Part shown: positions 6,238-59,049 of the stretch, piece by piece
How positions within the stretch are numbered: the stretch's first letter is position 1
Layout: each line of letters opens with the position of its first letter
NCBI GenBank assembly: GCA_964610305.1
Contig: CAZSVL010000001.1
Coordinates: 108,781-172,780, forward strand
Direction: 5' to 3'
Length of the DNA: 64,000 bases
From: an uncultured Gammaproteobacteria bacterium
Lineage (GTDB): Bacteria > Patescibacteriota > Patescibacteriia > Magasanikbacterales > JBBTXJ01
Made by a program: the position numbers and the translations under genes
The notes under the pieces: generated by a model
Databases searched by the model: none
Told to the model about the DNA's origin: nothing
The model's input: the letters and a program-made list of their open reading frames with translations, nothing else

Positions 6238-8036
6238 TAGCTTAGAAGTGCAATAGGGTCTACATCTATTTTGATTCCGCGCGGCAGTGAAAGCTGGTTT
6301 AGGAGATCTGCCAGAATTTCTTTATTCTCTGCTCTAATCAGTAAAACGGCGCCATATTTTCCTCTTTTTATGAGAGGGTGCGATACGTACGGCAGTGTGA
6401 CTATAACGTTTTTTTCTCTAGCCGTCAATTTTGAGGCAGACTCTGCTACAGATCTTAGCTTAGAGAGCGCCATGCCGGTGCTGGCTTCCCAGAGCGACAA
6501 TTTAAGCATGCTTGAGTACGGAGGATAACCCAGTTTTTCTCTGATATGGAGCTCTCTTGAGTACCAAAATTGTGGAGGCTTATCAGTGAGTGATCTAAGA
6601 ATTGCTCTTTGAGGTTCTCTTGTTTGAACAAGAAGGGGACTGCGAGCTGGCATCATGTACTGAATTTCCCTTGCTAGACTGAAAAATTCCTCACTTGCTC
6701 TGTGCTCCGGAATTCCCAACATGCCGTCAGCATCTACTATGCAGACGAAAGCCAAATCTGTCCACGGTGTGCATGCAAGGGCAGCCGACGTACCAATCAG
6801 CACATGAGGGTGCGTTGCTGGTTTGGGGGTATCTGTATCACCATCTACTCGGATAATCGGCAGTATATCCAAAGCACTAACGGCTGAGGCAACATGTTGA
6901 CTGCCTGGACTGTGGAATTTTTGTGCTACTCCACCGCAATTGGGGCAAAGTTCTGGCGGTTTATAGATTCTATTGCATGGGTGGCAGTCAAGCGTCTGCG
7001 TGTCTGCATGATAAATAAGGGGTAGTAGGCATATGGCGCACTGCTCGGCTCTTCCGCATTGCGCGCATTTAACCAGAGAAAAAGAGCCGCGTTTGTGAGT
7101 AATTATAAGACCGCTTTTGCCGTGACTCTTTGCCTGTCTGATGTGCTCAATGAGGTCATCGCTAAGTACGGAGAAATTTTTTCTTTGGTACTCCTGTTTT
7201 TGGTCAATGAGAATTACTGCCTTTTTTGGCGGCAAATGCATGAGCTGGTGATTTTTTAATTTGCGTGCGCTTTTTATGCTCGGCGTGTGGCTGGCGAGGG
7301 TGAGTTGGCAGGGGAGTGAGAGAGCGAGTGACTGAGCTACCTCTGCGCTGTGGTACCGTGGCGCTTGATCCCAATTTTTGTGATGTGCGTTGTGTTCAAA
7401 ATCTACAATTATGCGCTCTAGATTTAGAAATGGCAGAAATACTGCAGCTCTTGTTCCTACTACGGTTTGAGCCTGCCCATTTCTGATTTTAAAGTAGGCT
7501 TCAAATTTTTGTTTTTGTGTGAGGTTGGAGTGAAAGTATAGATCTGCCTTCCACTGCTCTAGATGCCGATGCTCAGGAACAATTATAAGTGTCTGGCCAT
7601 GGCTTGACCTTTTTTCATTCCACGCCTTTTTCTGGTCTTGCCTCTGGTACCAGAGATAGGATCGTTTATATTCATATTTTGAGTCGCAATAGTGTTCCAA
7701 TTCCTGCGAGGCGAGTTTCCTGCGTTGAAGAGGGGGACACATGGATGATAGTATTGGGCCAATGGGAGCGCCATATGTAGCGCTTATCTGCTGCGCAAGC
7801 TTAAGATAAGTATCAGACAAAAGAGGCGTGTCCCAGACCGCCTCCTTAATGCTTGCTAGTTTATCCTCAGGAATATCGGGCTTTCCCCGTATATTAAGAA
7901 CAATTCCAAAAATCTCACTCCGACGGAACGGAATTTTAACAAGCGAACCTGGCTGCACGCTAAAATCAATTTTATAATCCAGGATGGAGAAATTGTTCGG
8001 CAAGCGCCTCAGTGGCGCTACTTTTGCAAATTTCAT
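6237..8036 (-). CDS. priA: primosomal protein N' (PriA) homologue with degenerate helicase motifs
   Basis: PriA-type Cys-rich zinc region CAQCGRAEQCAICL...CHPCN...CPNCG; alignable TLIIVPEHRHLEQW and VVGTRAAVFLPFLNLERIIVDFEHN blocks, but no GxGKT Walker A and DFEH in place of DEEH; conserved priA-def-fmt arrangement. Confidence 0.75.
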   Translation of the reverse strand: MKFAKVAPLRRLPNNFSILDYKIDFSVQPGSLVKIPFRRSEIFGIVLNIRGKPDIPEDKLASIKEAVWDTPLLSDTYLKLAQQISATYGAPIGPILSSMCPPLQRRKLASQELEHYCDSKYEYKRSYLWYQRQDQKKAWNEKRSSHGQTLIIVPEHRHLEQWKADLYFHSNLTQKQKFEAYFKIRNGQAQTVVGTRAAVFLPFLNLERIIVDFEHNAHHKNWDQAPRYHSAEVAQSLALSLPCQLTLASHTPSIKSARKLKNHQLMHLPPKKAVILIDQKQEYQRKNFSVLSDDLIEHIRQAKSHGKSGLIITHKRGSFSLVKCAQCGRAEQCAICLLPLIYHADTQTLDCHPCNRIYKPPELCPNCGGVAQKFHSPGSQHVASAVSALDILPIIRVDGDTDTPKPATHPHVLIGTSAALACTPWTDLAFVCIVDADGMLGIPEHRASEEFFSLAREIQYMMPARSPLLVQTREPQRAILRSLTDKPPQFWYSRELHIREKLGYPPYSSMLKLSLWEASTGMALSKLRSVAESASKLTAREKNVIVTLPYVSHPLIKRGKYGAVLLIRAENKEILADLLNQLSLPRGIKIDVDPIALLS

Positions 8037-9373
8037 TCTATGTTAGGTCCGGTTGGGTGAATCTTTAAGCTTAATCTGTCCACGGTTTGAATATTCTCCC
8101 ATTTCCAGCCAAGATTTTCAAATATTTCAGCCGTGGGTATGGTGCGCTTGGTACCGTCTGAAATTACGTACACGGTATTTTCTTCCGCGGCTTTTACGAG
8201 CGACCCATCTTTGAATTTAAGCGGTGGGACTAATTTGAAGGACTGTAGCTGATCGGCCGCGATGTCTACCACATTTTGTCCTCTAAAACGATTTTCAATT
8301 ATTGAATCGCTCATGATAACAGATTTTTCGCCATTGTGAACGTAGTACCGATCACCGCTAACAGGGCTTCTAACCACAGCGCCAAGAGGGAACAAGTCTA
8401 AATCAGAGATGAATCTGCCGTTATCATACTCTGAGAGTTCGTCATCTGTGGCAGCGATAACCTCGTCTGGGTGATATCCTAATTGCTTGAATGTTTTCTC
8501 CGTTAAAAAGGGACGCTTTACATCGTCAACCAGTAAAAATTTCATCCCATTTTTGGATTGCACTAAGGAGTAGTTAGAAAATTTTATCATCGCACCTTCT
8601 TCAAACTGCTCAAGCTCGTGCGGCGGAACCTCTAGAACATCCTTAAGCTGACTTCTGCTTAAAAACACGCCCATGCTTGAAAATTTGTGCCGCTTATCTC
8701 CCTTGATAAGCCAAAGATTATTGTTGTTAGCAATTTTGAGGACTACGCCGTTGGGATAAGTGCGCGACCACCATTTCTGCCAAATTGACCACAGGTTTTT
8801 ATTGCCGTGGATGTGAGGTGTGTAAATATATTGGTTTGCCGTTGCCTGGTTTGCGGGTTTTACCCGCTGTCCGTCTATCGTAGTGGCTATACCTTTTTTT
8901 ACTGAAAAACGCGACGGGTTTTCAATATAAAATCGGTTGGCGCCAGCTCCGGCGTCTACCTGTTTTCCAAAGCCTTTATATTTTTGTATAGAGGGATCAG
9001 AGAGTGAGCAGTCATCACAGACCGCGTATCCCGTCGCCCAATCTAGTGCCTTGGTAGATGGATTTCCTCGTCTTTCAATAAGGCTCTGTTCCTTTTGCAA
9101 AAGTACTAGCAGATATTGAGGATTAATGGAGTATTCCTTGGCCGCATTATAAATTATTTGCGACGCTTTCATGACAAGGTTATTGTGATCCGCCGTTTTA
9201 TAGGTGGCCAAAAAACTATTCTTAGTCTCTAAAAATGCCTGAATCGCACTTTGCGTCATGCTTCTGTGATTGGTAAGCTGCTGATCTGAAATCAAAAAAT
9301 TAGGGTCAAATTCTGCGGCGTTTACTACTGCGGGTAACATTAAAAGTCCAATCAGGAGGATTATTTTTTTCAT
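8033..9373 (-). CDS. secreted hypothetical protein (N-terminal signal peptide)
   Basis: MKKIILLIGLLMLPAVVNAAEF signal peptide; overlaps the priA stop by 4 nt, so co-operonic; no recognisable catalytic motif. Confidence 0.55.
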   Translation of the reverse strand: MKKIILLIGLLMLPAVVNAAEFDPNFLISDQQLTNHRSMTQSAIQAFLETKNSFLATYKTADHNNLVMKASQIIYNAAKEYSINPQYLLVLLQKEQSLIERRGNPSTKALDWATGYAVCDDCSLSDPSIQKYKGFGKQVDAGAGANRFYIENPSRFSVKKGIATTIDGQRVKPANQATANQYIYTPHIHGNKNLWSIWQKWWSRTYPNGVVLKIANNNNLWLIKGDKRHKFSSMGVFLSRSQLKDVLEVPPHELEQFEEGAMIKFSNYSLVQSKNGMKFLLVDDVKRPFLTEKTFKQLGYHPDEVIAATDDELSEYDNGRFISDLDLFPLGAVVRSPVSGDRYYVHNGEKSVIMSDSIIENRFRGQNVVDIAADQLQSFKLVPPLKFKDGSLVKAAEENTVYVISDGTKRTIPTAEIFENLGWKWENIQTVDRLSLKIHPTGPNIE

Positions 9374-9408
9374 GGGAGTAGTATATCATGAGTATACGCT
9401 AGCATCCA

Positions 9409-9437
9409 TTGACAAAAAGTCAAAATTGTGTTACTCT
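9409..9437 (+). promoter_or_regulatory. sigma70-type promoter (TTGACA-17-TACTCT with TGT extension)
   Basis: ttgaca at 9409-9414, 17-nt spacer, tactct at 9432-9437; followed by SD aggagg (9451-9456) and ATG at 9461. Confidence 0.55.
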
Positions 9438-9460
9438 ATCTGGTTGAAAAAGGAGGATAC

Positions 9461-10195
9461 ATGAACGCTCAAATTGAAGCTCTTGTCGCTCAGTGTGTGG
9501 CAAACGGCAAGATGGATCAGGCTGTTGCCGCCTCTCAGCTTAGAAGCGTACCGGGGCTGCGTCTAAGAGAAATTAGGAAGTTGGCCTTGCGCAGAGCGCG
9601 CAGCGCTTGGGTTGACGGAGTGTTGCAGGTTGCTAAGCTCAGAATAGAGATGGCACAAGGAGTCATTGAAAATCTGCATAAGCAGATGCGAGAGCTAGGC
9701 GGCTTTGATAGCGACTTTGACAAAAAGGACGAGTGGCTTAGAAGCAAGAGGCCCGCTGCATGGGCGGATCTGCAGACGTGTCCAGAGCTGCGGCAAATCA
9801 GAGAAAACTATTTTGCCGTAAAAGATCTTAAGAAACGATTAGAAAAGAATAAGGGCGTGACCCCAGAAGAGGCTGACCAGCTTATTGTTAGTTGCGTGCC
9901 GTTGCAACGCATTGATCAGGCTCTGCGCGCTAGCGCATTGGGCGCCTCTGCACGGGGAAACAGTTTTCTTGTCGTGGAGCTTATCTCAGATAGGCATAAG
10001 CGCTACAACGATGCTGCAGCGGTAGCAAGGCGCGGAGTAGCCAGAGAGGTGCTGGACGCTCTGATTGCTGCGTGCGTAAACGCAGGGGCCGTAGAAGTTG
10101 CCGTGGGTGTGGCGCAGATGCGTTCGGCGAGTGGCTTAACAACCAATGAGCTTGCAGCTCTAACGCAAGCATGCTCGGAGCGGGCACAGCAGTAA
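9461..10195 (+). CDS. hypothetical Ala-rich protein
   Basis: ORF-track 9428 (GTG) to 10195; internal ATG at 9461 sits 5 nt after a strong SD and is the likely start; moderately GC-rich; no recognised domain. Confidence 0.5.
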   Translation: MNAQIEALVAQCVANGKMDQAVAASQLRSVPGLRLREIRKLALRRARSAWVDGVLQVAKLRIEMAQGVIENLHKQMRELGGFDSDFDKKDEWLRSKRPAAWADLQTCPELRQIRENYFAVKDLKKRLEKNKGVTPEEADQLIVSCVPLQRIDQALRASALGASARGNSFLVVELISDRHKRYNDAAAVARRGVAREVLDALIAACVNAGAVEVAVGVAQMRSASGLTTNELAALTQACSERAQQ

Positions 10196-26211: not shown

Positions 26212-26379
26212 GCTGTAGGCTGTAGGCTTTATGCTGTATGCCCTTTTAGCGTCATGCTGAATTTAATTCAGCATCCAGTTAGGAAACTAAGACTTACTCA
26301 ATTTTTACCCTAGATTCTGAATCAAGTTCAGGATGACATGTCGATACCTTACAGTATAAAGCCTACAGCCTACAGCATC
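26212..26379. repeat. composite palindromic element: 29-31-nt outer inverted repeats flanking an 87-nt GTCATGCTGAA...TTCAGGATGAC hairpin unit (MITE/REP-like)
   Basis: left arm gctgtaggctgtaggctttatgctgtatgcc (26212-26242) is the reverse complement of acagtataaagcctacagcctacagcatc (26351-26379); inner unit 26251-26337 with internal palindromes gctgaatttaattcagc and ctgaatcaagttcag; a related copy lies at 40169-40340. Confidence 0.7.
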
Positions 26380-37392: not shown

Positions 37393-37792
37393 AATAAAAA
37401 AAATGCCCCCGCTGCGTTACAAGAAGGCAGCGAGGGCGGTGTAGGTGCGCGTTTACGCCTTTGTTGGGGATAAGGCTCCCCTTGGCCGTAGTGATTGGGT
37501 GGATCAGGCGCGCTGTGAGCGCATTATCCTCCGCTTTCGCGCTATGAGGAACCCTTTGGGGTGATCAGCCCAGACTAATACCGCAAGGCGGTGTTTTCTC
37601 ATTAGTCCTCAATACCTTTTGATCAGTCTCTCCTTGCCTCTCGGCTTTCCCTATTATATGGGTGCTGGCGTCCCAGCTGTGGTCTATCCCCTGCGTTCGT
37701 TTTTTTTGGCGTTAGGCCTGCAAGTGGAGCTCCCGGGGATAAAAGGAAGCATGCCGCCTGCCTCGCGAAAAGAGCAGCCATGGCTCATTCCG
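37393..37792 (-). ncRNA. candidate structured RNA, unit B (about 400 nt, GC-rich), own promoter and terminator, immediately upstream of alr
   Basis: minus-strand promoter 37800-37828, intrinsic terminator hairpin gcccccgctgc/gcagcgagggc with T-run (plus coordinates 37393-37437), no long ORF, about 57% GC; shares a conserved core with unit A, with compensatory changes. Confidence 0.5.
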
Positions 37793-37799
37793 TTAACAC

Positions 37800-37828
37800 A
37801 GTATAGCACAAAATACGCATTTTGTCAA
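37800..37828 (-). promoter_or_regulatory. minus-strand sigma70 promoter TTGACA-17-TATACT with TGTGC extension
   Basis: the plus-strand motifs tgtcaa (37823-37828) and agtata (37800-37805), 17 nt apart, give TTGACA-N17-TATACT on the minus strand. Confidence 0.6.
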
Positions 37829-37884
37829 GGGGTAGATTGACAAAATACGCTTATTTTAGCCAATTTTAGGGTCTTATTTTGAGT

Positions 37885-38164
37885 AAAAAAAGGACCCCGC
37901 GAGCATCTACCGTTAAGTAGTGCCACGGGGTCGAGGAAGCTATGAGCAGGTTGGGAGCGCCAGGCGCGTTATTCCTCCACAGCATTTTCAGCCGTATTAG
38001 AGGAGTCCCTTTAGGGGGATCAGCCCAGAGCACAGCCACAAAGTGGTGTTTTTCAGTGCTCTCCTTACTCACGATTACGGTCTCTCCTTGTTGCCCCTAA
38101 GAATTTATCGGGGTCGTGGATGGTGGTCCTGCCAGGGCAGACGTTGAATGGTATTAAAGAATCG
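37885..38164 (-). ncRNA. candidate structured RNA, unit A (about 280 nt), paralogue of unit B
   Basis: minus-strand promoter 38171-38199; terminator hairpin gaccccgtg...cgcggggtc plus T-run (plus coordinates 37885-37932); conserved blocks ...GAAAAACACC-hairpin-CUGGGCUGAUC.CCC.AAAGGG...GGAGGAUAAYGCGC-loop-GCGC shared with unit B. Confidence 0.5.
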
Positions 38165-38170
38165 GATTAA

Positions 38171-38199
38171 AGTATAGCAGAAAAAACGTATTTTGTCAA
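38171..38199 (-). promoter_or_regulatory. minus-strand sigma70 promoter TTGACA-17-TATACT with TGC extension
   Basis: plus-strand agtata 38171-38176 and tgtcaa 38194-38199, spacer 17. Confidence 0.6.
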
Positions 38200-38226
38200 G
38201 TGGTCTTTGACACGTGTTCTTTTTTT

Positions 38227-38299
38227 GTCATCCTGAACCGAAGGTGAAGGATCTCCTGCCGCGCGATGGTATGAGATCCTTCACTGCGTTCAGGATGAC
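38227..38299. repeat. MITE/REP-like hairpin element GTCATCCTGAAC...GTTCAGGATGAC
   Basis: 12-nt perfect terminal inverted repeats (38227-38238 and 38288-38299) enclosing a second inverted repeat gtgaaggatctc/gagatccttcac; same termini as the elements at 26251-26337 and 40212-40296. Confidence 0.65.
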
Positions 38300-38351
38300 G
38301 CTTATGGGTTTTGTCAATTAAAAAACCCAGATGGTTAGTCCGGGAGAATTT

Positions 38352-40173: not shown

Positions 40174-40340
40174 TAGGCATCAGGCCTCAGGCATTAGTGA
40201 GGTGTCCACTTGTCATACTGAACTTGATTCAGAAACTATGAAGAAACAAAGTACGTCTTGCTGTTATAGTGGATCCTGAATCAAGTTCAGGATGACGCTA
40301 ACTGGGTACTAGTGCCTACTGCCTGATGCCTAATGCCTAT
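40169..40340. repeat. composite palindromic element filling the atpD-atpC intergenic region (outer inverted repeats plus 85-nt GTCATACTGAAC...GTTCAGGATGAC unit)
   Basis: outer arms ggcattaggcatcaggcctcaggcattag (40169-40197) and ctagtgcctactgcctgatgcctaatgcc (about 40309-40338); inner unit 40212-40296 shares the 21-nt ctgaatcaagttcaggatgac with 26317-26337. Confidence 0.7.
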
Positions 40341-40343
40341 AAC

Positions 40344-41805
<1,462 letters not shown>

Positions 41806-41813
41806 GGTGTTAT

Positions 41814-42716
41814 TTACGCCAATGCTGCGGCTCCGCCTGCGATCTCTGCAATTTCTTGCGTTATGGCGGCTTGACGCGCTTGGTTATAGGTTAAGGTTAA
41901 CTCATCTACGATATCATCGGCCGCATCGCTGGCGGATCTCATGGCCATCATGCGTGCGCTGTGCTCAGAGGCAATTGCCTCTAGTATGGCCTGAAAGACC
42001 GTAGTTTCAAAAAATCGTGGGAGCAATTGGGTGTATACCTGCTCTGGACTGGGTTCAAATAGGTACTCGCTGTCCTGATCTTGTCGGGGTCCTTCGTCGC
42101 TGCGCTCCTCAGGATGACGGGTTGGAAGCAGATTGGAAAATGGTAGAACTGTTTTGAGGATGGGCTTTTGAACGAGCGGTGACTGAAATTCTGTATAGAG
42201 CAGAGTTACTTTGTCTACTTTTTCGTTCTTAAATTCGTCCAGACATATTTGCCCCACGGGTTGGATCTGCAAATAGTCAATTACTTCTGTGATGTCCTCA
42301 AAGTTTGCGATGAGATCTAGCCCTTGTTTTGCCAGCGGACCTCTCCCTTTTTTTCCGACGGCTACAATTTTAACATCAACTCCGGCATCTTTGCGTTCTT
42401 TTGTATATCTAAGAGCTTCCCGAACAATGTTTGCATTCAAACCTCCACAAAGTCCTCTGTCCGAAGTCACTACTACTAATAGTTCTGTTTTATCTTGCAA
42501 AGGTTCACGCAGCAGCGGGTGCAGTGAACTCTCTGCCTTTTTAGCCAAACGAGCCAAAATACTCTGAGCGCTATCGCTGTAGCTTCTAGAATTCACAGCA
42601 GCCTCTGTGGCCTTTCGCATTTTACTGGCAGCAACAAGCTCCATCGCTTTGGTAATTTTTCGCGTGGATGCCACGGATTTGATCCGAGTACGTATAATTT
42701 TGGTTGAAGCTGGCAT
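41814..42716 (-). CDS. atpG: F1Fo ATP synthase gamma subunit
   Basis: 300 aa; gamma-subunit N- and C-terminal helices (MPASTKIIRTRIKSV...; ...QEIAEIAGGAAAL). Confidence 0.9.
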   Translation of the reverse strand: MPASTKIIRTRIKSVASTRKITKAMELVAASKMRKATEAAVNSRSYSDSAQSILARLAKKAESSLHPLLREPLQDKTELLVVVTSDRGLCGGLNANIVREALRYTKERKDAGVDVKIVAVGKKGRGPLAKQGLDLIANFEDITEVIDYLQIQPVGQICLDEFKNEKVDKVTLLYTEFQSPLVQKPILKTVLPFSNLLPTRHPEERSDEGPRQDQDSEYLFEPSPEQVYTQLLPRFFETTVFQAILEAIASEHSARMMAMRSASDAADDIVDELTLTYNQARQAAITQEIAEIAGGAAALA

Positions 42717-43425: not shown

Positions 43426-43496
43426 GTCATCGCGAGGAGTGAAGCAACGTGGCGATCCCGTCGGGATTGCTTCGCAGTTTCACTGCTCGCAATGAC
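43426..43496. repeat. 71-nt hairpin repeat, copy 2 (GTCATCGCGAGGAGTGAAGC...CACTGCTCGCAATGAC)
   Basis: see 41735-41805; lies between the small ORFs and the atpA stop. Confidence 0.7.
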
Positions 43497-45396: not shown

Positions 45397-45980
45397 TTTT
45401 CAAGGACATCTTTAACCGCCTTTTCACTCTTGCTGGCGTCCATTTCTTGTTCCAGAAGCTTTGCTGTTGCGGTTGCTACAAGCTGCGCTGCATGGCTTGC
45501 GATATCTTGCTGAGCTTCTGCTTTTTGCGTCTCTATCTGTTTTTTTGCGCCTGCTACAAGCGCTGCAATTTCTTGCTGCGTTTTCTCTCTTTGCAGTGCC
45601 GCTTGTTTTTCTGCTTGCTGCGATGATTCTGCCATAAGAGCTGCGGCTTGCTGCTTTGCTTCTGTCATTTTTTTATCATAATCCTGCTCTGCTGCTGCAA
45701 GGCGTGTTTGCATTTCCTGGGCATTGTCTATCCCCTCTTGGATTTTTGCCTGACGCTCATTCATTATTTTTAGAAGCGGCTTGTAAGCCATCTTCCATAG
45801 AATTAGCAGGATCAGAGAAAAATTAAAAAGCTGCGCTAAAAACAGCTTTTTGTTTATACCAAGAGAACCGAGTGGTCCCGCTGTGGGCTCGGCGGTGTGC
45901 GCTACTTCTGCTGCGCCTACGGCAGCGTCGGCAACTACGTGCGCAGCCTCCGTGGCTGCATGTGCGATTTCTATAAACAT
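45393..45980 (-). CDS. atpF: F1Fo ATP synthase b subunit
   Basis: single N-terminal TM then a long Ala/Gln/Glu-rich helix; the ORF-track N-terminal extension (to 46079) is translation of the 14-mer tandem repeat, and the true start is MFIEIA (cat 45978-45980). Confidence 0.8.
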   Translation of the reverse strand: MFIEIAHAATEAAHVVADAAVGAAEVAHTAEPTAGPLGSLGINKKLFLAQLFNFSLILLILWKMAYKPLLKIMNERQAKIQEGIDNAQEMQTRLAAAEQDYDKKMTEAKQQAAALMAESSQQAEKQAALQREKTQQEIAALVAGAKKQIETQKAEAQQDIASHAAQLVATATAKLLEQEMDASKSEKAVKDVLEK

Positions 45981-45986
45981 TTGGCA

Positions 45987-46118
45987 ATAAGTAACAAGTA
46001 GCAAGTCAATAAGTAACAAGTAGCAAGTAACAAGTAGCAAGTAACAAGTAGCAAGTAACAAACTTGTTAATACGCACACTGCGAAATTGCTACTTGTTCC
46101 TTGTTACTTGCTACTTTC
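45987..46118. repeat. tandem 14-nt repeats (GTAACAAGTAGCAA, about 5 copies) followed by their inverted copy, forming a long imperfect hairpin in the atpE-atpF spacer
   Basis: gtaacaagtagcaa repeated 45991-46060; inverted ttgctacttgttccttgttacttgctac at 46088-46115. Confidence 0.7.
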
Positions 46119-46206: not shown

Positions 46207-46425
46207 TTAGAGGGTGAAAACAACCACCAAAGCGTAAATGGCGATAGCCTCAGCAAATGCTGCGCCCAAAAGCATGGGTACAAACAATTTTCCGGCCGCC
46301 TCTGGGTTTCGCCCAATGGCTTCCATAGCTTTTGCTACAAGCCATCCAATGGCAAGAGCTGGCGCTAGACCTCCAATGGCCATAGTAAGACCCTTGGTAA
46401 GAACTTTAATTGATTCTGCGTCCAT
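46207..46425 (-). CDS. atpE: F1Fo ATP synthase c subunit
   Basis: 72-aa two-helix hairpin with GRNPE loop and the carboxylate-helix motif [13 protein letters not shown]. Confidence 0.95.
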
Positions 46426-46437
46426 ATATTCTTATTA

Positions 46438-46510
46438 AGTAACAAGTAGCAAGGAACAAGTAACAATTTTTCGCGCTTTTTTTGTTACTTGCTGCTTGTT
46501 ACTTGCTGCT
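46438..46510. repeat. second copy of the GTAACAAGTAGCAA-based hairpin (atpB-atpE spacer)
   Basis: gtaacaagtagcaaggaacaagtaac ... gttacttgctgcttgttacttgctgc inverted arms around a T-rich loop. Confidence 0.65.
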
Positions 46511-46514
46511 TAAC

Positions 46515-54301: not shown

Positions 54302-54952
54302 CTAGCTTGAGATTACTATGGTAAACTCGCCTCTTTTTTCTGTCATTGCCTCTTTTACTTCTTTGATGGTGCCGCGGTAGAAGGTCTCATGTAGTTTTGT
54401 TAACTCTCGTGCTACTACAATTTGTCTTTTTGGATCCAGTTGCTCTGACAGCTCATTAAGAAGTTTTTCAATACGATGAGTTGATTCAAAAAAAACCGTG
54501 GTTATTGGTTGGCTTGTTGCATGTTTGATAAATTTTGTGCGTCCCTTTTTTTGTGGTATGAAACCAAAGAAGCAGTATTTGTCGGTAGGAAAGCCGCTTG
54601 CTTGCAAAGCTGTTGTTACGGCAGATGCTCCTGGAATAGGAATCACTGTTCCTCCAGAATTCCATATGGCATCCACAAGTTTTCCTCCCGGGTCTGAAAT
54701 TCCCGGTGTTCCGGCGTCGCTGACCAGAGCCACTGTTTTATCTTTAATTGTTTTTAACGTCTTTGTGGTGTCACTATGCGCGTCAAATCTTTTTAGGGGT
54801 GTATGTATACCAAAATGAGACGAGAGTTTTTTGGTAACTCTGGTGTCCTCAGCTAGGATTACATCTACTGTTTTGAGCGTTTCTAGGGCTCTACTAGATA
54901 TGTCTCCTAGGTTTCCTATGGGGGTGGCTACAATGTAGAGGGTGGTTTTCAT
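54302..54952 (-). CDS. rsmI: 16S rRNA (cytidine1402-2'-O)-methyltransferase RsmI
   Basis: tetrapyrrole-methylase fold N-terminus MKTTLYIVATPIGNLGDISSRALETL. Confidence 0.9.
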   Translation of the reverse strand: MKTTLYIVATPIGNLGDISSRALETLKTVDVILAEDTRVTKKLSSHFGIHTPLKRFDAHSDTTKTLKTIKDKTVALVSDAGTPGISDPGGKLVDAIWNSGGTVIPIPGASAVTTALQASGFPTDKYCFFGFIPQKKGRTKFIKHATSQPITTVFFESTHRIEKLLNELSEQLDPKRQIVVARELTKLHETFYRGTIKEVKEAMTEKRGEFTIVISS

Positions 54953-54975
54953 TTTTGCAGTTGCGGTGCCTTTTT

Positions 54976-55020
54976 CTTGAGATCCCGGATATTTTGCTAC
55001 GCAAAATTCCGGGATGACAG
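54976..55020. repeat. partial GAGATCCCGGAT...TTCCGGGATGACAG hairpin element
   Basis: shares both arms with the elements at 56486-56615. Confidence 0.6.
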
Positions 55021-55050
55021 GGGGTAGTTTTAGAATGACATGGGTATGAT

Positions 55051-55338
55051 CTACTCCTCTGGCCAGATTTGATTGCCCTTTGCGTCATAAACAATGATAG
55101 CGTTGGTGGGGCAGCTTTGGGCTGCAAGCAGGAGTGTCTCGTCGTCATGAGCATCTGGGTCAACCAAAAAAGCTAGATTTTCATCGTCTAGTTGGAAGGT
55201 TCCCGGCGCTACGGCAATACAAGAGGCCGCACCTATGCAGGCATCTCTATCTATTACCACCTTTCTATATTCCTTATCCTCAGAGCGTGTGCCCGTTTCA
55301 ATATCTCCCTCCCTTTCTACATTTTTTTGTTCAGACAT
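55051..55338 (-). CDS. ferredoxin (single Cys-cluster, 3Fe-4S/4Fe-4S type)
   Basis: CIGAASC...CP cluster-binding motif in a 95-aa acidic protein. Confidence 0.8.
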   Translation of the reverse strand: MSEQKNVEREGDIETGTRSEDKEYRKVVIDRDACIGAASCIAVAPGTFQLDDENLAFLVDPDAHDDETLLLAAQSCPTNAIIVYDAKGNQIWPEE

Positions 55339-55443
55339 AGTGCCATTTTAGCATTGTAGTATAAAAAGAGCCACAGCAGCTTTTTTCATTTTTTTTGGTT
55401 TCTGAAATGTGGCTAATTTAAGCCAATTTTGTCAAGTTACCTC

Positions 55444-55472
55444 TTGACAAAATTGACAAAGTGTGCTATACT
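55444..55472 (+). promoter_or_regulatory. sigma70 promoter TTGACA-17-TATACT with TGTGC extension; 38-nt sequence duplicated at 57377-57414
   Basis: ttgaca 55444-55449, spacer 17, tatact 55467-55472; ctcttgacaaaattgacaaagtgtgctatactgctttt is identical at both sites. Confidence 0.65.
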
Positions 55473-55479
55473 GCTTTTG

Positions 55480-56162
55480 TTGCGTTAAGACAGTTCTGCG
55501 CCCACTTCTGTTTCTGTCTTTTGGGTAGTACGGAGCTTGTGCCGAAAAAGGCCCTTAGCGTAACGCTCTTTTTGAAAAGTGTTGGTTTTCCTGCCAGCGC
55601 GCAATGGAGGATGTAGTATGTCTGAAAGGCCCGATCTGCCGCCCGCCTTGTGGAGGCCCGCAGTATTGGAGTCCGTCAGGCCCAGGATCTCAATGGTGAT
55701 TGAGTGAACGGAGCACGGTTGTGGCTAGCGCCTGGCGCTAGGGTTGCTTGCCTCCACAAGCAGCACTTTCCATGTCTGTGGGAGGTTCAACTAGCTAGAA
55801 AGCTTGCAGGAATTCACCGTTTTCTGTGTATGGCCGGCATACTTGCTGACGCGGGGTGCGAGAGATCGCAGCCGAACCAAACCGCTCAGTTAGCGTGGCC
55901 ACGTAGTGGTCGGCTTGTAAAGCTTGTGAGGAGCTACTGATCCTCTGTGGTGATCCCATGGAGGAGCCCACAAGCTGGTATCCTATGAGAGGCTGAAGTG
56001 ATGCAGACCTCTACTCGCCTAACAGTGAGAGCCTTTGCAAGGGCCAGTACGACGCTCCCGCGGGGAGAGTACGTGCAAGGATATTACACAGAAACGTCAC
56101 AAGCGTGGTACTGCGCAGGTTCCACGTGGCCCTCGTCGACAACCGTTGACGAGGGCTTTTTT
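55480..56162 (+). ncRNA. candidate long GC-rich noncoding transcript (about 680 nt), promoter to terminator, no long ORF
   Basis: starts about 8 nt after the -10; ends at hairpin gccctcgtcgac/gttgacgagggc (56129-56156) plus T6; about 57% GC; long-range helix gccttgtggaggc (55645-55657) / gcctccacaagc (55750-55761); contains a 29-codon ORF with perfect SD at 55618-55707. Confidence 0.4.
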
Positions 56163-56164
56163 AA

Positions 56165-56746
56165 TTATAGTCCTAAAAAAAGATCGTCTCCCAATTCTAA
56201 ATCTTCAAATTCCCCTTTTGTGTAATCCCCTTCTGGGAGTTTGCGCGCCGCTTCTACTTTTGAAGCTGCCTCCGGGGGGATGACCTCTGAGATTATGTTT
56301 CCGTTAACGGCTATATTGTTTGCTACTTCACAATAGCCCAGGCAGCCTCTGTATTGCAGAGAGACTTCCTCACTTTCTTGCCCTTCTTTGATTCCAAAGT
56401 GATTTTCTAGCTCTTGCATAATATAGCGCGCATGCTTGGGGCCGCAGGTTTTGGAATCGCAGACTTCAATTCGATCTACCTTTTTGTCATCCCGGACTAG
56501 ATCCGGGATCTCAAGTGATGCGTCTACCGACGATTTTTTACTTGAGATCCCGGATAATTCACTATGTGAATTTCCGGGATGACAGGTGGAGGGTTGTGAA
56601 TTTCCGGGATGACAGATTGGTTTGTTTTGTCCGCATGTGCAGTTTTCGCATTTTGACGGGATCCCTCGGCTCTCCTGCGGATCGCTCGGGGTGACGGGTG
56701 GGTTACCCATAGTATTTTTCGCTATAAAATCTAATGAGTTGCTCAA
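56165..56746 (-). CDS. thioredoxin-like [2Fe-2S] ferredoxin (NuoE-like); N-terminal region of uncertain reality
   Basis: C-terminal CDSKTCG ... GCLGYCE (C-x4-C ... C-x3-C); the N-terminal about 90 codons translate the CCGGGATGACAG repeat elements and overlap the upstream NifU gene by 44 nt, so the true start is probably internal. Confidence 0.65.
   Translation of the reverse strand: MSNSLDFIAKNTMGNPPVTPSDPQESRGIPSKCENCTCGQNKPICHPGNSQPSTCHPGNSHSELSGISSKKSSVDASLEIPDLVRDDKKVDRIEVCDSKTCGPKHARYIMQELENHFGIKEGQESEEVSLQYRGCLGYCEVANNIAVNGNIISEVIPPEAASKVEAARKLPEGDYTKGEFEDLELGDDLFLGL
56486..56615. repeat. GTCATCCCGGAC...TTCCGGGATGACAG hairpin element with tandemly duplicated right end, embedded in the 5' part of the 2Fe-2S ferredoxin ORF
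   Basis: termini gtcatcccgga (56486-56496) and tccgggatgac (56573-56583); inner inverted repeat ccgggatctcaagt/acttgagatcccgg; second copy of gtgaatttccgggatgacag at 56596-56615. Confidence 0.65.
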
Positions 56747-57362
56747 TTTCCGGAATGCTCTCTGGCGAGCCCACTCCTACTTTTAGTTTTTTTTGTACCT
56801 CTTCTATGGTTTGAGCCCCTTCAAGCACTGCTTCTTCTATATCTTTGTCTGTAATATTTAAAACGGGATCAATTATTTTTGCCGCAACCACTTTTATTCT
56901 GTCATGTTGGCCAGTGTTTCTAAAATATTGATTGATGGCTTTTCTGAAGGCCTTGTCTACCAAAACACTGCAGTGGATTTTTCTGTTTGGTAGTCCTCCT
57001 AGGCGTTCCATTATGTGTTGAGGTTTTACGTTTAGTGCTTCCTCTATAAGCATTCCACCGTTTTCTGTGATCATAACAGAGAACATGCTGGTGGCAGCAA
57101 TGGCAGATCCGCATCCAAAGGTTTTCCATTTCAATTCAGTAATGTTTTCAGTGTCTGAAACGTTAATCCATACATCCATAACGTCTCCGCACGCAGGTGA
57201 TCCTACGGTGCCGCGTGCATCAAAGCTGTTTTCATCAGGTTCTTCTAGGAGTAAATTCTTTGGATTAAAAAAATGGTCTTTTACGATGTCTGAATATACC
57301 CAGGATTCTCCTGTGTGATCATTGACTACGTCTTTCCCCTTTTTTTGTGTAATTTTAGCCAT
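56703..57362 (-). CDS. NifU/IscU-type Fe-S cluster scaffold protein with C-terminal extra domain
   Basis: GSPACGD, FGCGSAIA and HCS cluster-ligand motifs; likely start MAKITQ (cat 57360-57362); ORF-track start 57395 overlaps the divergent promoter. Confidence 0.85.
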   Translation of the reverse strand: MAKITQKKGKDVVNDHTGESWVYSDIVKDHFFNPKNLLLEEPDENSFDARGTVGSPACGDVMDVWINVSDTENITELKWKTFGCGSAIAATSMFSVMITENGGMLIEEALNVKPQHIMERLGGLPNRKIHCSVLVDKAFRKAINQYFRNTGQHDRIKVVAAKIIDPVLNITDKDIEEAVLEGAQTIEEVQKKLKVGVGSPESIPEIEQLIRFYSEKYYG

Positions 57363-57379
57363 TTTTGTGTGTTTAGCTC

Positions 57380-57408
57380 TTGACAAAATTGACAAAGTGT
57401 GCTATACT
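57380..57408 (+). promoter_or_regulatory. second copy of the TTGACA-17-TATACT (TGTGC) promoter
   Basis: ttgaca 57380-57385, tatact 57403-57408; fires into the iscU-iscS intergenic region; T7 at 57521-57527 after a structured 100-nt segment. Confidence 0.6.
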
Positions 57409-57741
57409 GCTTTTAGATGGTAATGCTGGTGCTGGATGAGGGATGCGATGTGTTGCAAAGGCCTTGTGACATGTTGTAGACCGCTTGAGTTCAGGCCGAC
57501 ACCAGTCGGAAATTAAGGCGTTTTTTTCTCGAAGCCAGCGGAATATGCGCAGTTATGTATTGCCAAAGGATACGGCTCCTGAGGGCGGGCGGCGCGTACT
57601 GCTTCAAAAACATTACCATCTAACCTCTCTTCTTCACCCTGCAGCTTGCGTCTTTGACGTGGCGGCTGTAGCCTCTGCCTAAGGGCACGACTGTAACAGT
57701 CGTTGGTGAAAACAGACACACCGGTCTGAAGAGGGGATTTT

Positions 57742-59049
57742 TTATTTCATCCAATGCGGCTTTCCTTCCCCGACAAATGCCTTTTGCATGGTCGGTTTTT
57801 TGTTATCCTCTGTTGGTTTGCCCGCATCATCCAGCTTAAGATTCACCGGAGAGATATCGCGCAGTCTCTGAACAATCTCTGGCAGCAAATTCAGTACATA
57901 ATCTAAGTCTTCTTTTGTGGTGCTTCTTCCTAGCGTAAATCTCATACTTCCGTGTGCGTATTCGTATGGTTTTCCGATAGCAAGAATAACATGTGACGGA
58001 TCTAAAGACTCAGACGTGCAGGCGCTTCCGGTAGACATGGCTATTCCGTACTCATCAAGGTACAACAAGAGTGCCTCGCCTTCAATATCTAAAATACTGA
58101 CGTTTACATTGTTGGGCAAACGCTCTGTCACGTGTCCATTGATTACTATTTTTGGAATTCTCTTTATTATTTCCTGAGTAAAGTAATCGCGAAGTTTTGT
58201 TAGTCTTTCAGATTCGCTTTGTGCATCAGCTCGTACAATTTCTACGGCTTTTGCGAGTCCCACAATGCCAGCAACATTTTCCGTACCAGCACGCATACGC
58301 ATTTCTTGTCCTCCGCCGTGGATGAGTGGCTTTATTTTTACGTGATCAGCTTTATACAAAACACCAACTCCCTTTGGGCCGTAAATTTTGCTTCCGTTAA
58401 AGGTAAGTAAGTCTGCATGTAATTTTTTTACATCAATGTCTAGGTAATTTATTGCTTGGCATGCATCGGTATGGAGATAGGGAGCCTTGTTGGGCTTTAT
58501 ATCATTATCTTTTTTCCATCGCAGGAGAGCCCTGCCGATATCGGCAATAGGATTAATGCTGCCTATTTCATTATTGGCGTACATGACGGAGATTAAAATA
58601 GTATCATCTTTGAGCGCAGCAATAACATCCTTTGGACTTACCATTCCAAATTCGTCAGTATCCAAATACGTAACCTCAAAGCCTTCTTTCTCTAGCGCCT
58701 GGCAGCTGTGCAGCACGGCGTGATGTTCAACTTTGGTGGTTATAATGTGACCGCTCCCCTGCTTTTTGGCAACGCCATAGATGGCCATATTGTCACTCTC
58801 TGTTCCAGAGCCGGTGAAAATTATATTACGTGGATTTGCTCCCAGTGCCTGTGATACGGTTTTGCGCGCCCGATCCACAGCGAGTTTTCCGTTTCTTGCT
58901 TTTTTATACAAGCCTCCCGGATTTCCAAATTCCTCTTTTAAAAAGGGTGTCATAATTTCAAAAACCGCTTGCTCAAGCGGTGTTGCTGCGGCGTGATCAA
59001 GGTATACCCGCCGTCTATTCTCTACTTTTGGAAATGGTTTAAAATCCAT
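57742..59049 (-). CDS. iscS: cysteine desulfurase (IscS/NifS class V aminotransferase) with C-terminal extension
   Basis: PLP-lysine context ...FNGSKIYGPKGVGVL... and catalytic-Cys loop STGSACTSESLDPSHV. Confidence 0.95.
   Translation of the reverse strand: MDFKPFPKVENRRRVYLDHAAATPLEQAVFEIMTPFLKEEFGNPGGLYKKARNGKLAVDRARKTVSQALGANPRNIIFTGSGTESDNMAIYGVAKKQGSGHIITTKVEHHAVLHSCQALEKEGFEVTYLDTDEFGMVSPKDVIAALKDDTILISVMYANNEIGSINPIADIGRALLRWKKDNDIKPNKAPYLHTDACQAINYLDIDVKKLHADLLTFNGSKIYGPKGVGVLYKADHVKIKPLIHGGGQEMRMRAGTENVAGIVGLAKAVEIVRADAQSESERLTKLRDYFTQEIIKRIPKIVINGHVTERLPNNVNVSILDIEGEALLLYLDEYGIAMSTGSACTSESLDPSHVILAIGKPYEYAHGSMRFTLGRSTTKEDLDYVLNLLPEIVQRLRDISPVNLKLDDAGKPTEDNKKPTMQKAFVGEGKPHWMK

Follow-up and report, generated by a model that had tools for sequence, protein, structure and literature searches.

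Small tagged DNA hairpins have entered the gene of a thioredoxin-like [2Fe-2S] ferredoxin (fdx) at two places, both within what comparative evidence places as its N-terminal coding region. The gene follows a nifU-like gene in an operon carried by a 64-kb stretch of contig CAZSVL010000001.1 (hereafter the window, to which all positions refer), from an uncultured bacterium of a Patescibacteria-like lineage. The hairpins are CGTC/TGTC-tagged units resembling repetitive extragenic palindromes (REPs) and belong to the same class as dRS3 and NTS of Neisseria, RPE-4 and RPE-6 of Rickettsia, and the Ssn-related motifs (SRM) (Di Nocera, De Gregorio & Rocco, 2013, BMC Genomics 14:522, PMC3733652; Chenal et al., 2025, Nat Commun 16:2388, PMC11893778). 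The account that we favour, and that we hold to be probable, is that tagged hairpins inserted in frame, are translated, are likely passengers of the protein and spread in the manner of Ssn-type repeats.

The repeat class, its partner enzyme and its in-frame occurrence within genes have all been published already, and the locus reveals no new kind of element. What is new is the host lineage, a long-stem variant of the hairpin with CCCGGA in its outer arm, and an N-terminal copy that is truly intragenic, with two sites differently filled in two relatives. We describe here the anatomy and class of the units, their position in frame, the conservation of that frame, and the association of the same hairpin with GIY-YIG genes elsewhere.

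The ferredoxin gene and its start

The open reading frame (ORF) listed for fdx occupies 56165-56746 of the minus strand and reads ...CHPGNSQPSTCHPGNSH... across the repeat, as had been noticed in a previous reading made from the sequence alone (the sequence-only reading). Its annotated TTG start gives 193 residues in the NCBI record (P0164), whereas the Logan gene call starts at an ATG and gives 181, the length also of a 100% identical protein (P0001). Orthologue comparison places the start at this ATG (56710) and not at the TTG, giving a corrected coding sequence of 181 codons at 56165-56710. PF01257 is matched with E = 1.3e-08 (35.2 bits for a cut-off of 24.8) by residues 91-162 of the 193-aa form, and the cysteine ligands C96, C101, C135 and C139 (CxxxxC ... 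CxxxC) are invariant across the orthologue alignment.

Directly upstream in the operon lies the nifU-like scaffold gene (56703-57362, minus strand; PF01592, E = 5.4e-34), with a probable start at MAKITQ... and a listed ORF reaching 57395. The ferredoxin ATG at 56708-56710 overlaps the nifU stop (56703-56705) as ATGGGTAA, an overlap of 8 nt that suggests translational coupling. This start is kept in all six orthologous loci (L001, L002/L003, L119, L120, L121), in the form ATGGGTAG in L001. Hence the 44-nt overlap between the two genes described in the sequence-only reading is an annotation artefact of the TTG start. The gene order nifU-fdx is kept in the relatives, whose loci come from groundwater metagenomes.

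The alignment of orthologues that had been proposed for locating the N-terminus was carried out and revealed a conserved beginning, MGKCENCxC-(4-8 aa)-IxVC(D/E)SKTCGPK. More exactly, all orthologues except L001 read MGKC(E/N)NCxC, then 4-8 residues, then I(Q/E)VC(E/D)SKTCGPK, and 63 alignment columns are invariant, 60 of them within the 2Fe-2S domain. Genuine ancestral coding sequence would be expected to recur in relatives as the same long N-terminal region; the orthologues P0003-P0005, L119, L120 and L121 have only 108-124 residues and are devoid of it. Most members of the wider family (38 clusters, from 1.84 billion representatives) begin the domain at residue 2-12, and residues 1-56 of the query are unmatched. 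Since the conserved start and the CxxCxC motif both stand upstream of the repeat, the repeat would lie within the coding sequence and is best read as coding rather than as 5' untranslated region (5'-UTR).

Two in-frame insertions

Read from the conserved start, the window protein is MG-(NPPVTPSDPQESRGIPS)-KCENCTCG-(QNKP...DLVR)-DDKKVDRIEVCDSKTCGPK. The sequence-only reading had considered a repeat-derived N-terminal extension of the ferredoxin. The addition of repeat-derived coding sequence is borne out, not as an extension but as two in-frame insertions, both internal and both downstream of the conserved start. One of them had escaped that reading: a decayed insert of 51 nt (56654-56704, minus strand), whose 17 codons NPPVTPSDPQESRGIPS stand between the conserved MG and KCENC. 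This insertion 1 comes from a tagged unit, now decayed, of another family (GTCACCCCGAGCGATCC...GCCGAGGGATCCC). The family recurs at the right end of the L001 insert, and insertion 1 folds no better than shuffled sequences (z = -0.47).

Insertion 2 is placed by alignments of orthologue proteins and DNA at 56492-56629 (minus strand), with a length of about 132-138 nt (44-46 codons), its boundaries being ambiguous by a few codons. The conserved CENCTCG and DDKKVDRIEVC stand on its two sides, and its translation is QNKPICHPGNSQPSTCHPGNSHSELSGISSKKSSVDASLEIPDLVR; GIPSKCENCTCGQNKPICHPGNSQPSTCHPGNSHSELSGISSK is an example of a peptide derived from it. At the DNA level it is a cluster of 2.5 CCCGGA units, made of an opposite pair around a 23-nt spacer and of a 30-nt in-frame duplication of the tag-side half. 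It is open in one of the six frames, which is the frame used. The whole N-terminal region of 231 nt is free of stops in the coding frame only; 4% of shuffled sequences are stop-free.

The related locus L001, with a domain 85% identical to that of the window, carries inserts at the same two positions, made of largely different units: one is bounded by TGTCAT...GGGATGAC and another contains GTCATCTCGACCGAGCGAAGCGAGTGGAGAGATCCC. All the L001 insert lengths are multiples of 3, and 222 nt are open in the coding frame only (11% of shuffles are stop-free). Conservation between the window and L001 does not extend to the insert peptide. The maintenance of the frame and of multiple-of-3 lengths in both loci is what purifying selection on a translated gene predicts, and argues against 5'-UTR and pseudogene readings. 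The occupation of the same two sites by different units suggests a site-specific turnover of hairpins.

The ATG chosen by the gene caller in L001 (10001-10003, MTDTVDRIEVC...) belongs to the repeat terminus GGGATGAC. A tagged hairpin can thus supply an in-frame alternative start in L001; the window terminus is in another phase and cannot.

Anatomy of the hairpin units

The sequence TTCCGGGATGACAG is found exactly three times on the plus strand (55007-55020, 56572-56585 and 56602-56615), and an inverted variant with 2 mismatches occupies the opposite strand at 56484-56497. These four matches compare with 0.24 expected, and none of 100 shuffles reached four. The sequence-only reading had described a single element at 56486-56583, and each of its features was recovered: the termini TGTCATCCCGGA (56485-56496) and TCCGGGATGACA (56573-56584) are 100% complementary, as are the two 16-nt arms of an inner inverted repeat (56501-56516 and 56540-56555), and a 21-nt right end is copied exactly (56565-56585 and 56595-56615) with a period of 30 nt. 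The single element itself gives way to a pair of oppositely oriented units (56485-56516, plus strand; 56540-56585, minus strand) followed by a half-unit duplication (56595-56615).

A unit is laid out as (C/T)GTC + AT-CCCGGA-(variable, covarying inner stem)-TCCGGG-AT + C. Its parts are an unpaired tag (C/T)GTC, an AT...AT palindrome (ATCCCGGA...TCCGGGAT) with a bulged A in the 3' arm, and a C right after the palindrome. Read on the GTCAT strand, a full unit is cTGTC-ATCCCGGA-(7-nt inner arm)-(3-nt loop)-(7-nt inner arm)-A-TCCGGGAT-CTCAAG; as a single-stranded DNA (ssDNA) oligonucleotide it takes the form CTGTCATCCCGGAAATTCACATAGTGAATTATCCGGGATCTCAAG. The window holds two full units, both on the minus strand, and 54971-55036 matches 56536-56601 at 79%. 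Their inner arms, ATTTTGC/GCAAAAT in one and AATTCAC/GTGAATT in the other, differ by compensatory changes, so that the stem is preserved.

One of the full units lies outside fdx, between the start of rsmI (54952) and the stop of a 4Fe-4S ferredoxin gene (55051). This copy (54976-55020) had been detected and called partial; it is a complete hairpin, cTGTC-ATCCCGGA-ATTTTGC-GTA-GCAAAAT-A-TCCGGGAT-CTCAAG, with an ssDNA fold of -13.6 kcal/mol (z = -6.0). Next to it, 55027-55041 (minus strand) can be seen by sequence inspection as the remnant left half of another tagged hairpin (ATGTCATTCTAAAAC), in an alignment that is only partly clean; at the equivalent place, L002 has a full hairpin aTCATTCTA-loop-TAGAATCcc.

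The other units lie within fdx. A short one without inner stem (56485-56516), in opposite orientation on the plus strand, reads TGTC-ATCCCGGA-CTAGA-TCCGGGAT-CTCAAGT and folds at -9.3 kcal/mol (z = -4.05); its GATGAC end corresponds to two codons, D-D, that the uninserted orthologue L002 has as well. The spacer that follows (56517-56539, 23 nt) forms the loop of a large composite hairpin. Beyond it, the full unit at 56540-56585 (minus strand) is cTGTC-ATCCCGGA-AATTCAC-ATA-GTGAATT-A-TCCGGGAT-CTCAAGT (-13.1 kcal/mol, z = -6.7). Finally, the tag-side half unit at 56595-56615 (minus strand), CTGTCATCCCGGAAATTCACA, is the exact 21-nt copy of 56565-56585 and stems from the 30-nt (10-codon) tandem duplication; the duplicated half-unit peptides are CHPGNSQPST/CHPGNSHSEL. 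As ssDNA, single units thus have z values of -4 to -6.7, and the whole cluster reaches -9.5.

Altogether, 3.5 CCCGGA units and at least 5 loci of other GTCAT-tagged families are present in the window. A generic scan for GTCA(T/C) with an 8-nt inverted match within 160 nt had a high background (24 cases for 10 in shuffled sequences), and its short, perfect matches alone were used. An assembly artefact was rejected: an independent Logan assembly (run SRR8146441, L123) is 100% identical to the window over 55449-57406, so the insert is not the product of a single assembler. Rfam gave chance hairpin matches only (for example mir-392) in a gathering-threshold scan of the whole window and in E-value scans of 54900-56800 and 57300-57800, and ARAGORN found no tRNA or tmRNA.

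The units have the tag, the palindrome start and the 3' C of the CGTC/SRM class. Every CCCGGA unit starts with (c/t)TGTCAT, the tag being noted HGTCWY for SRM, and other tagged families in the window read CGTCAT (26251, 40296, 43496); among 114 distinct copies from other genomes, the base preceding GTCAT is C in 65 and T in 41. The first pairs of the palindrome are A-T and T-A, within a stable hairpin. A C follows directly, the units ending in ...GGGAT-CTCAAG, a tail that differs from the CCA or CYRG consensus. Stem and loop measure 8 bp and 5 nt in the short unit; the two long ones have 15 paired positions, the bulged A and a 3-nt loop. GNA triloops are frequent among simple copies elsewhere (20 of 26 triloops) and occur in one window unit (GTA), a feature that we did not use as evidence.

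The hairpin in other genomes and its GIY-YIG neighbors

In GTDB species representatives from many phyla, the pattern GAGATCCCGGAT-N(8-35)-TCCGGGATGAC matches at least 115 stretches, for a chance expectation that we estimate at about 0.5. Among the matches listed are Bradyrhizobium, Thioalkalivibrio, Alteromonas, Vibrio, Balneolaceae, Caulobacteraceae, Fibrobacter, Chloroflexota, Neomarinimicrobiota, Elusimicrobia and a Patescibacteria metagenome-assembled genome (MAG). The inner stems differ and covary, and the extra inner stem is found in about half of the 114 distinct copies.

Six-frame translations of the CCCGGA-hairpin loci were searched for GIY-YIG proteins. Two were found, both adjoining the hairpin and both assigned at the level of Pfam PF01541. 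The Gracilimonas mengyeensis locus (L038) has a 109-aa GIY-YIG ORF (E = 1e-14) with a CCCGGA hairpin on both sides, and a Flavobacteriales MAG (L020) has a 102-aa GIY-YIG ORF with the hairpin immediately after it. These loci reproduce, for the CCCGGA hairpin type, the published repeat-ssn-repeat arrangement.

Origin and fate of the inserts

According to the account that we favour, units entered the short Cys-rich N-terminal tail of the ferredoxin twice, after codon 2 and between the CxxCxC motif and the first cluster ligand. Translation would start at the ATG overlapping the nifU stop and run through both inserts, and only insertions and later indels preserving a single open frame would have survived. 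The protein would then carry about 63 extra residues, predicted to be disordered, upstream of an intact 2Fe-2S domain. Judging from the literature, the units may act as ssDNA hairpins on the tagged strand, to which an Ssn-family GIY-YIG nuclease (cd10448) would bind, cutting a few nucleotides 5' of the tag; this enzyme, or repair or recombination at its cuts, would most likely drive spread and turnover at fixed sites. Since relatives do not conserve the inserted peptide, which is also predicted to be disordered, it is most simply, and most likely, a passenger that the flexible tail tolerates.

It is improbable, in our judgment, that the repeats were exapted, either as extra metal or cluster ligands or as mRNA hairpins regulating fdx translation relative to nifU. 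Every TGTCAT tag encodes Cys-His in the fdx frame, two Cys-His pairs being added right after CxxCxC, and L001 keeps an equivalent 'SCH' at the same place, the rest of the insert being replaced; moreover, the mRNA at 56470-56725 is strongly structured (-90.5 kcal/mol, z = -6.5). If exaptation or regulation were true, Ssn-type selfish repeats would have created a new protein function in a minimal-genome Patescibacteria bacterium.

Several points weigh against the favoured account. Translation of the insert is deduced from sequence, and an ATT codon three codons before the first ligand Cys, with AAGG upstream, is a possible non-canonical start. The predicted disorder comes from an AlphaFold model in which residues 1-87 of the 193-aa form have a pLDDT <50 and the domain core alone has a recognisable fold, a model built on a shallow 6-sequence alignment, with a mean pLDDT of 46.9 and a low overall confidence. 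To our knowledge, nobody has demonstrated how CGTC/SRM repeats are copied; for Ssn, cleavage only is established. No GIY-YIG or Ssn ORF was detected in the window by motif, by phmmer with the E. coli YhbQ sequence, or by a hidden Markov model built from the L038 and L020 ORFs. The published SRM regular expression, as written, has 0 matches in the window, because of loop length and of the last position: with the last position relaxed, one match is obtained, the short unit 56485-56516, in which all the other positions fit, and with the loop widened to 0-25 all 3 units match, along with one chance match. Lastly, the stems of 15 bp and loops of 3 nt depart from the 8-9 bp and 4-5 nt of the described families; the architecture fits, and the stems are unusually long.

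Other explanations were weighed against the same evidence. The sequence-only reading had allowed for a true start downstream, the hairpins then lying in the nifU-fdx intergenic region or 5'-UTR, where they could serve as an element of RNA stability or translation control. Such a non-coding repeat is very improbable: from the repeat to the first ligand Cys, the window has neither ATG nor GTG nor TTG in frame; conservation extends to the ATGGGTAA start and to the KCENCxC motif, both upstream of the repeat; and the frame stays open over the whole N-terminal region of the window and of L001 in one of six frames only. It would agree with the strong structure of the mRNA, with the ATT codon and its AAGG, with the 108-aa protein predicted in L001 from the ATG within the terminus GGGATGAC, and with the caution of Di Nocera et al. 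that REPs placed by annotation in N-terminal regions are mostly extragenic (PMC3733652). A decaying pseudogene or non-functional variant, disabled by the insertions and open by accident, is the least probable of the explanations considered. Two repeat insertions and a duplication within 70 codons, an insert peptide unconserved between the window and L001 and a predicted disordered N-terminus would suit decay; yet all four Cys ligands are intact, the invariant columns are concentrated in the 2Fe-2S domain, the operon context is preserved, and the chances of a stop-free region given above apply even before multiple-of-3 indels are required.

As for mobility, a classical REP/REPIN or a MITE (a miniature transposable element with inverted repeats), moved by a RAYT (an IS200/IS605-type Y1 transposase) or by another transposase with no link to Ssn, has a similar anatomy of unpaired tag, palindrome, inverted pairs and ssDNA hairpins. 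The window lacks a detected Ssn gene, as such mobility would allow, and Di Nocera et al. admit that CGTC repeats may be moved by unrelated transposases; the same authors found no RAYT flanked by CGTC repeats (PMC3733652). The tag is (C/T)GTC and not GTAG, target-site duplications and long MITE-type terminal inverted repeats (TIRs) are missing, CCCGGA hairpins flank GIY-YIG genes in L038 and L020, and 71% of ssnA homologues have an SRM nearby (PMC11893778). We therefore regard this origin as very unlikely.

Under the favoured account of translated, Ssn-type passengers, the locus is a clear but ordinary case of selfish DNA within a protein-coding gene. It corrects an annotation, the ferredoxin having 181 residues from the ATG at 56710 with two repeat-derived inserts. 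It also offers a well-controlled CGTC/Ssn-type hairpin truly within an N-terminal coding region, a point left unsettled for N-terminal copies in the 2013 survey (PMC3733652), and adds a Patescibacteria-like lineage to the range of the repeat class; no account of CGTC/SRM repeats in Patescibacteria came up in a limited literature search. Finally, two relatives fill the same two sites with different units, a pattern pointing to a site-specific turnover that could help to work out how these repeats spread.

Other tagged repeats, RNA-like regions and neighboring genes

Other GTCAT/CGTC-tagged families are found at 26251-26337, 38227-38299, 40212-40296, 41735-41805 and 43426-43496 (GTCATCCTGAAC...; 68-nt palindrome GTCATCGCGAGGAGTGAAAC...GCAATGAC). 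These five loci are all intergenic, several of them between ATP synthase genes, and the long ones are tagged at both ends (z = -6.6 to -9.0). The sequence-only reading suggested that the GTCAT...ATGAC families belong to a single superfamily sharing one mechanism; this view is supported, and had already been published under the names of CGTC-tagged REPs (PMC3733652) and Ssn-related motifs (PMC11893778).

In atpG, too, a decayed tagged unit, GTCATCCTGAGGAGCGCAGCGACGAAGGAC, occurs at about 42080-42116 (minus strand), where it encodes RHPEERSDEGP within a loop of the F1 gamma subunit. An in-frame repeat insertion is not demonstrable there, the loop being hypervariable in length across all orthologues. 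The relatives P0046 and P0047 have 'KEGTGEV' and 'KERAGEV' at the same loop, peptides which we take to resemble those of other hairpin repeats. The window AtpG is 63% identical to a 'Patescibacteria group bacterium' protein and about 48% identical to Candidatus Uhrbacteria proteins; it is from these resemblances that the bacterium is placed with the Patescibacteria.

The plus strand at 55444-56163 resembles a transcription unit. An extended -10 promoter close to consensus (TTGACA-17-TG-TATACT, 55444-55472) precedes about 685 nt of GC-rich sequence (52-57%) without convincing ORF, and a 13-bp terminator with a T-run closes it (56128-56163; fold z = -4.2). Rfam gave no match for the region, which is a candidate for a large non-coding RNA. 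A phage origin of this 690-nt GC-rich unit was rejected, as blastn gave no match in a phage collection. L002 lacks the unit, and 37 nt separate fdx from the 4Fe-4S ferredoxin gene there.

A copy of its promoter (65 nt, 89% identical to 55414-55478) lies in the iscS-nifU spacer (57380-57745, plus strand), on the strand opposite to the operon. It is followed by a GC-rich RNA-like region of about 330 nt ending in a T-run, and this region is 75% identical to the corresponding spacer of L002 and L003. Eighteen predicted base pairs are kept by two-sided changes (z = -4.5), and Rfam has no match at E <= 10; this region is a candidate conserved structured RNA. Further small RNA genes may exist at 37400-38350, about 950 nt without long ORF, with a promoter motif copy (37869-37799, minus strand), the tagged palindrome at 38227-38299 and two copies of a 46-nt terminator-like repeat (37552-37597 and 38007-38052).

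Arrays of a 14-nt tandem repeat (GTAACAAGTAGCAA) at 45974-46116 and 46436-46511, in opposite orientations, stand on either side of an atpE-like ORF (46207-46425) and overlap the listed N-terminus of an atpF-like ORF (MCVLTSLLLATCYLLLVTCYLLL...). In the related locus L001, the NifU-like gene (8023-9798) encodes 591 aa, compared with 218-230 aa elsewhere, and has a faint LAGLIDADG match, which suggests an intein in the Fe-S scaffold protein. On account of this segment, removal of the ferredoxin insert as an intein or intron was considered, and rejected since the insert has no such features.

Comparison with known repeat systems

Bacterial MITEs are among the systems compared. Coxiella QMITE2, in enhC, gives an in-frame fusion (PMC5896051), and a non-autonomous repeat adds amino acids to a host protein in both cases. 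However, MITEs have terminal inverted repeats derived from insertion sequences, a length of 100-400 bp and usual target-site duplications, none of which is seen at the window locus.

The GTAG-tagged REPs and REPINs, with their RAYT transposases (Nunvar, 2010; Ton-Hoang, 2012), are described here as they are presented in the two papers already cited (PMC11893778, PMC3733652). In these presentations, they share with the window repeats a tagged hairpin recognised as ssDNA, inverted doublets, and one domesticated enzyme gene with its own repeats on either side. Their enzyme is an HUH Y1 transposase and not a GIY-YIG protein, and every window unit has a (C/T)GTC tag in place of GTAG.

The Rickettsia palindromic elements (RPE), according to Ogata et al., are reportedly in-frame palindromes that are translated as parts of housekeeping genes unrelated to one another, and that loops or termini tolerate. 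The window insert is likewise an in-frame insertion in a conserved gene, missing from orthologues, with the host domain intact. In contrast, the RPE-1 type measures about 100-150 bp and has a conserved encoded peptide, the window units have 45 nt, the RPE host is an alphaproteobacterial intracellular parasite, and the CCCGGA units are probably unrelated to RPE in sequence. The relation would be one of kind, via the CGTC tag, rather than of sequence.

The CGTC-tagged REPs were defined by Di Nocera et al. as having a tag that is often TGTC (also CCTC), stems of 8-9 bp starting with A-T and T-A, loops of 4-5 nt and a short unpaired tail. Their units often form oppositely oriented pairs, with several families per genome; they are mostly intergenic, in co-oriented operons, and were surveyed in five phyla, Patescibacteria not being among them. 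dRS3 corresponds to CGTC-1, and Rickettsia RPE-6 and RPE-4 to CGTC-1 and CGTC-4. Intragenic in-frame copies were documented, including clusters encoding 43-82 aa, and no dedicated transposase was found (all PMC3733652). The window repeats have in common with them the TGTC tag, the A-T/T-A start of the stem, a short tail, coexisting families, opposite pairs, a mostly intergenic placement in co-oriented operons and in-frame copies. They differ by the tail, CTCAAG instead of CCA, and, for two of the three units, by a hairpin built of an outer stem (8 bp), a variable inner stem (7 bp) and a 3-nt loop, with one A bulged out.

Chenal et al. characterized the Neisseria NTS, CGTCATTCCCGCGMAVGCGGGAATCYRG, which contains dRS3, and defined the broader SRM, with a search pattern allowing loops of 0-5 nt. 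SRM hairpins are recognised as ssDNA only, and on one strand only, by the small GIY-YIG nucleases Ssn (cd10448), which cut a few nucleotides 5' of the motif; the critical positions are the three that precede the palindrome and the C that directly follows it, the latter being the most critical for binding. Ssn modulates natural transformation in Neisseria (PMC11893778). Intragenic or in-frame copies are not treated in that work (PMC11893778), whereas the window copies are in frame; the window also differs by having no ssn gene in its 64 kb and by leaving the degenerate pattern unmatched as written. The window units nevertheless share with NTS/SRM the succession GTCAT, palindrome and ATC, all the positions critical for Ssn and a distribution across phyla. 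In two other genomes, small GIY-YIG genes have the CCCGGA hairpin directly beside them.

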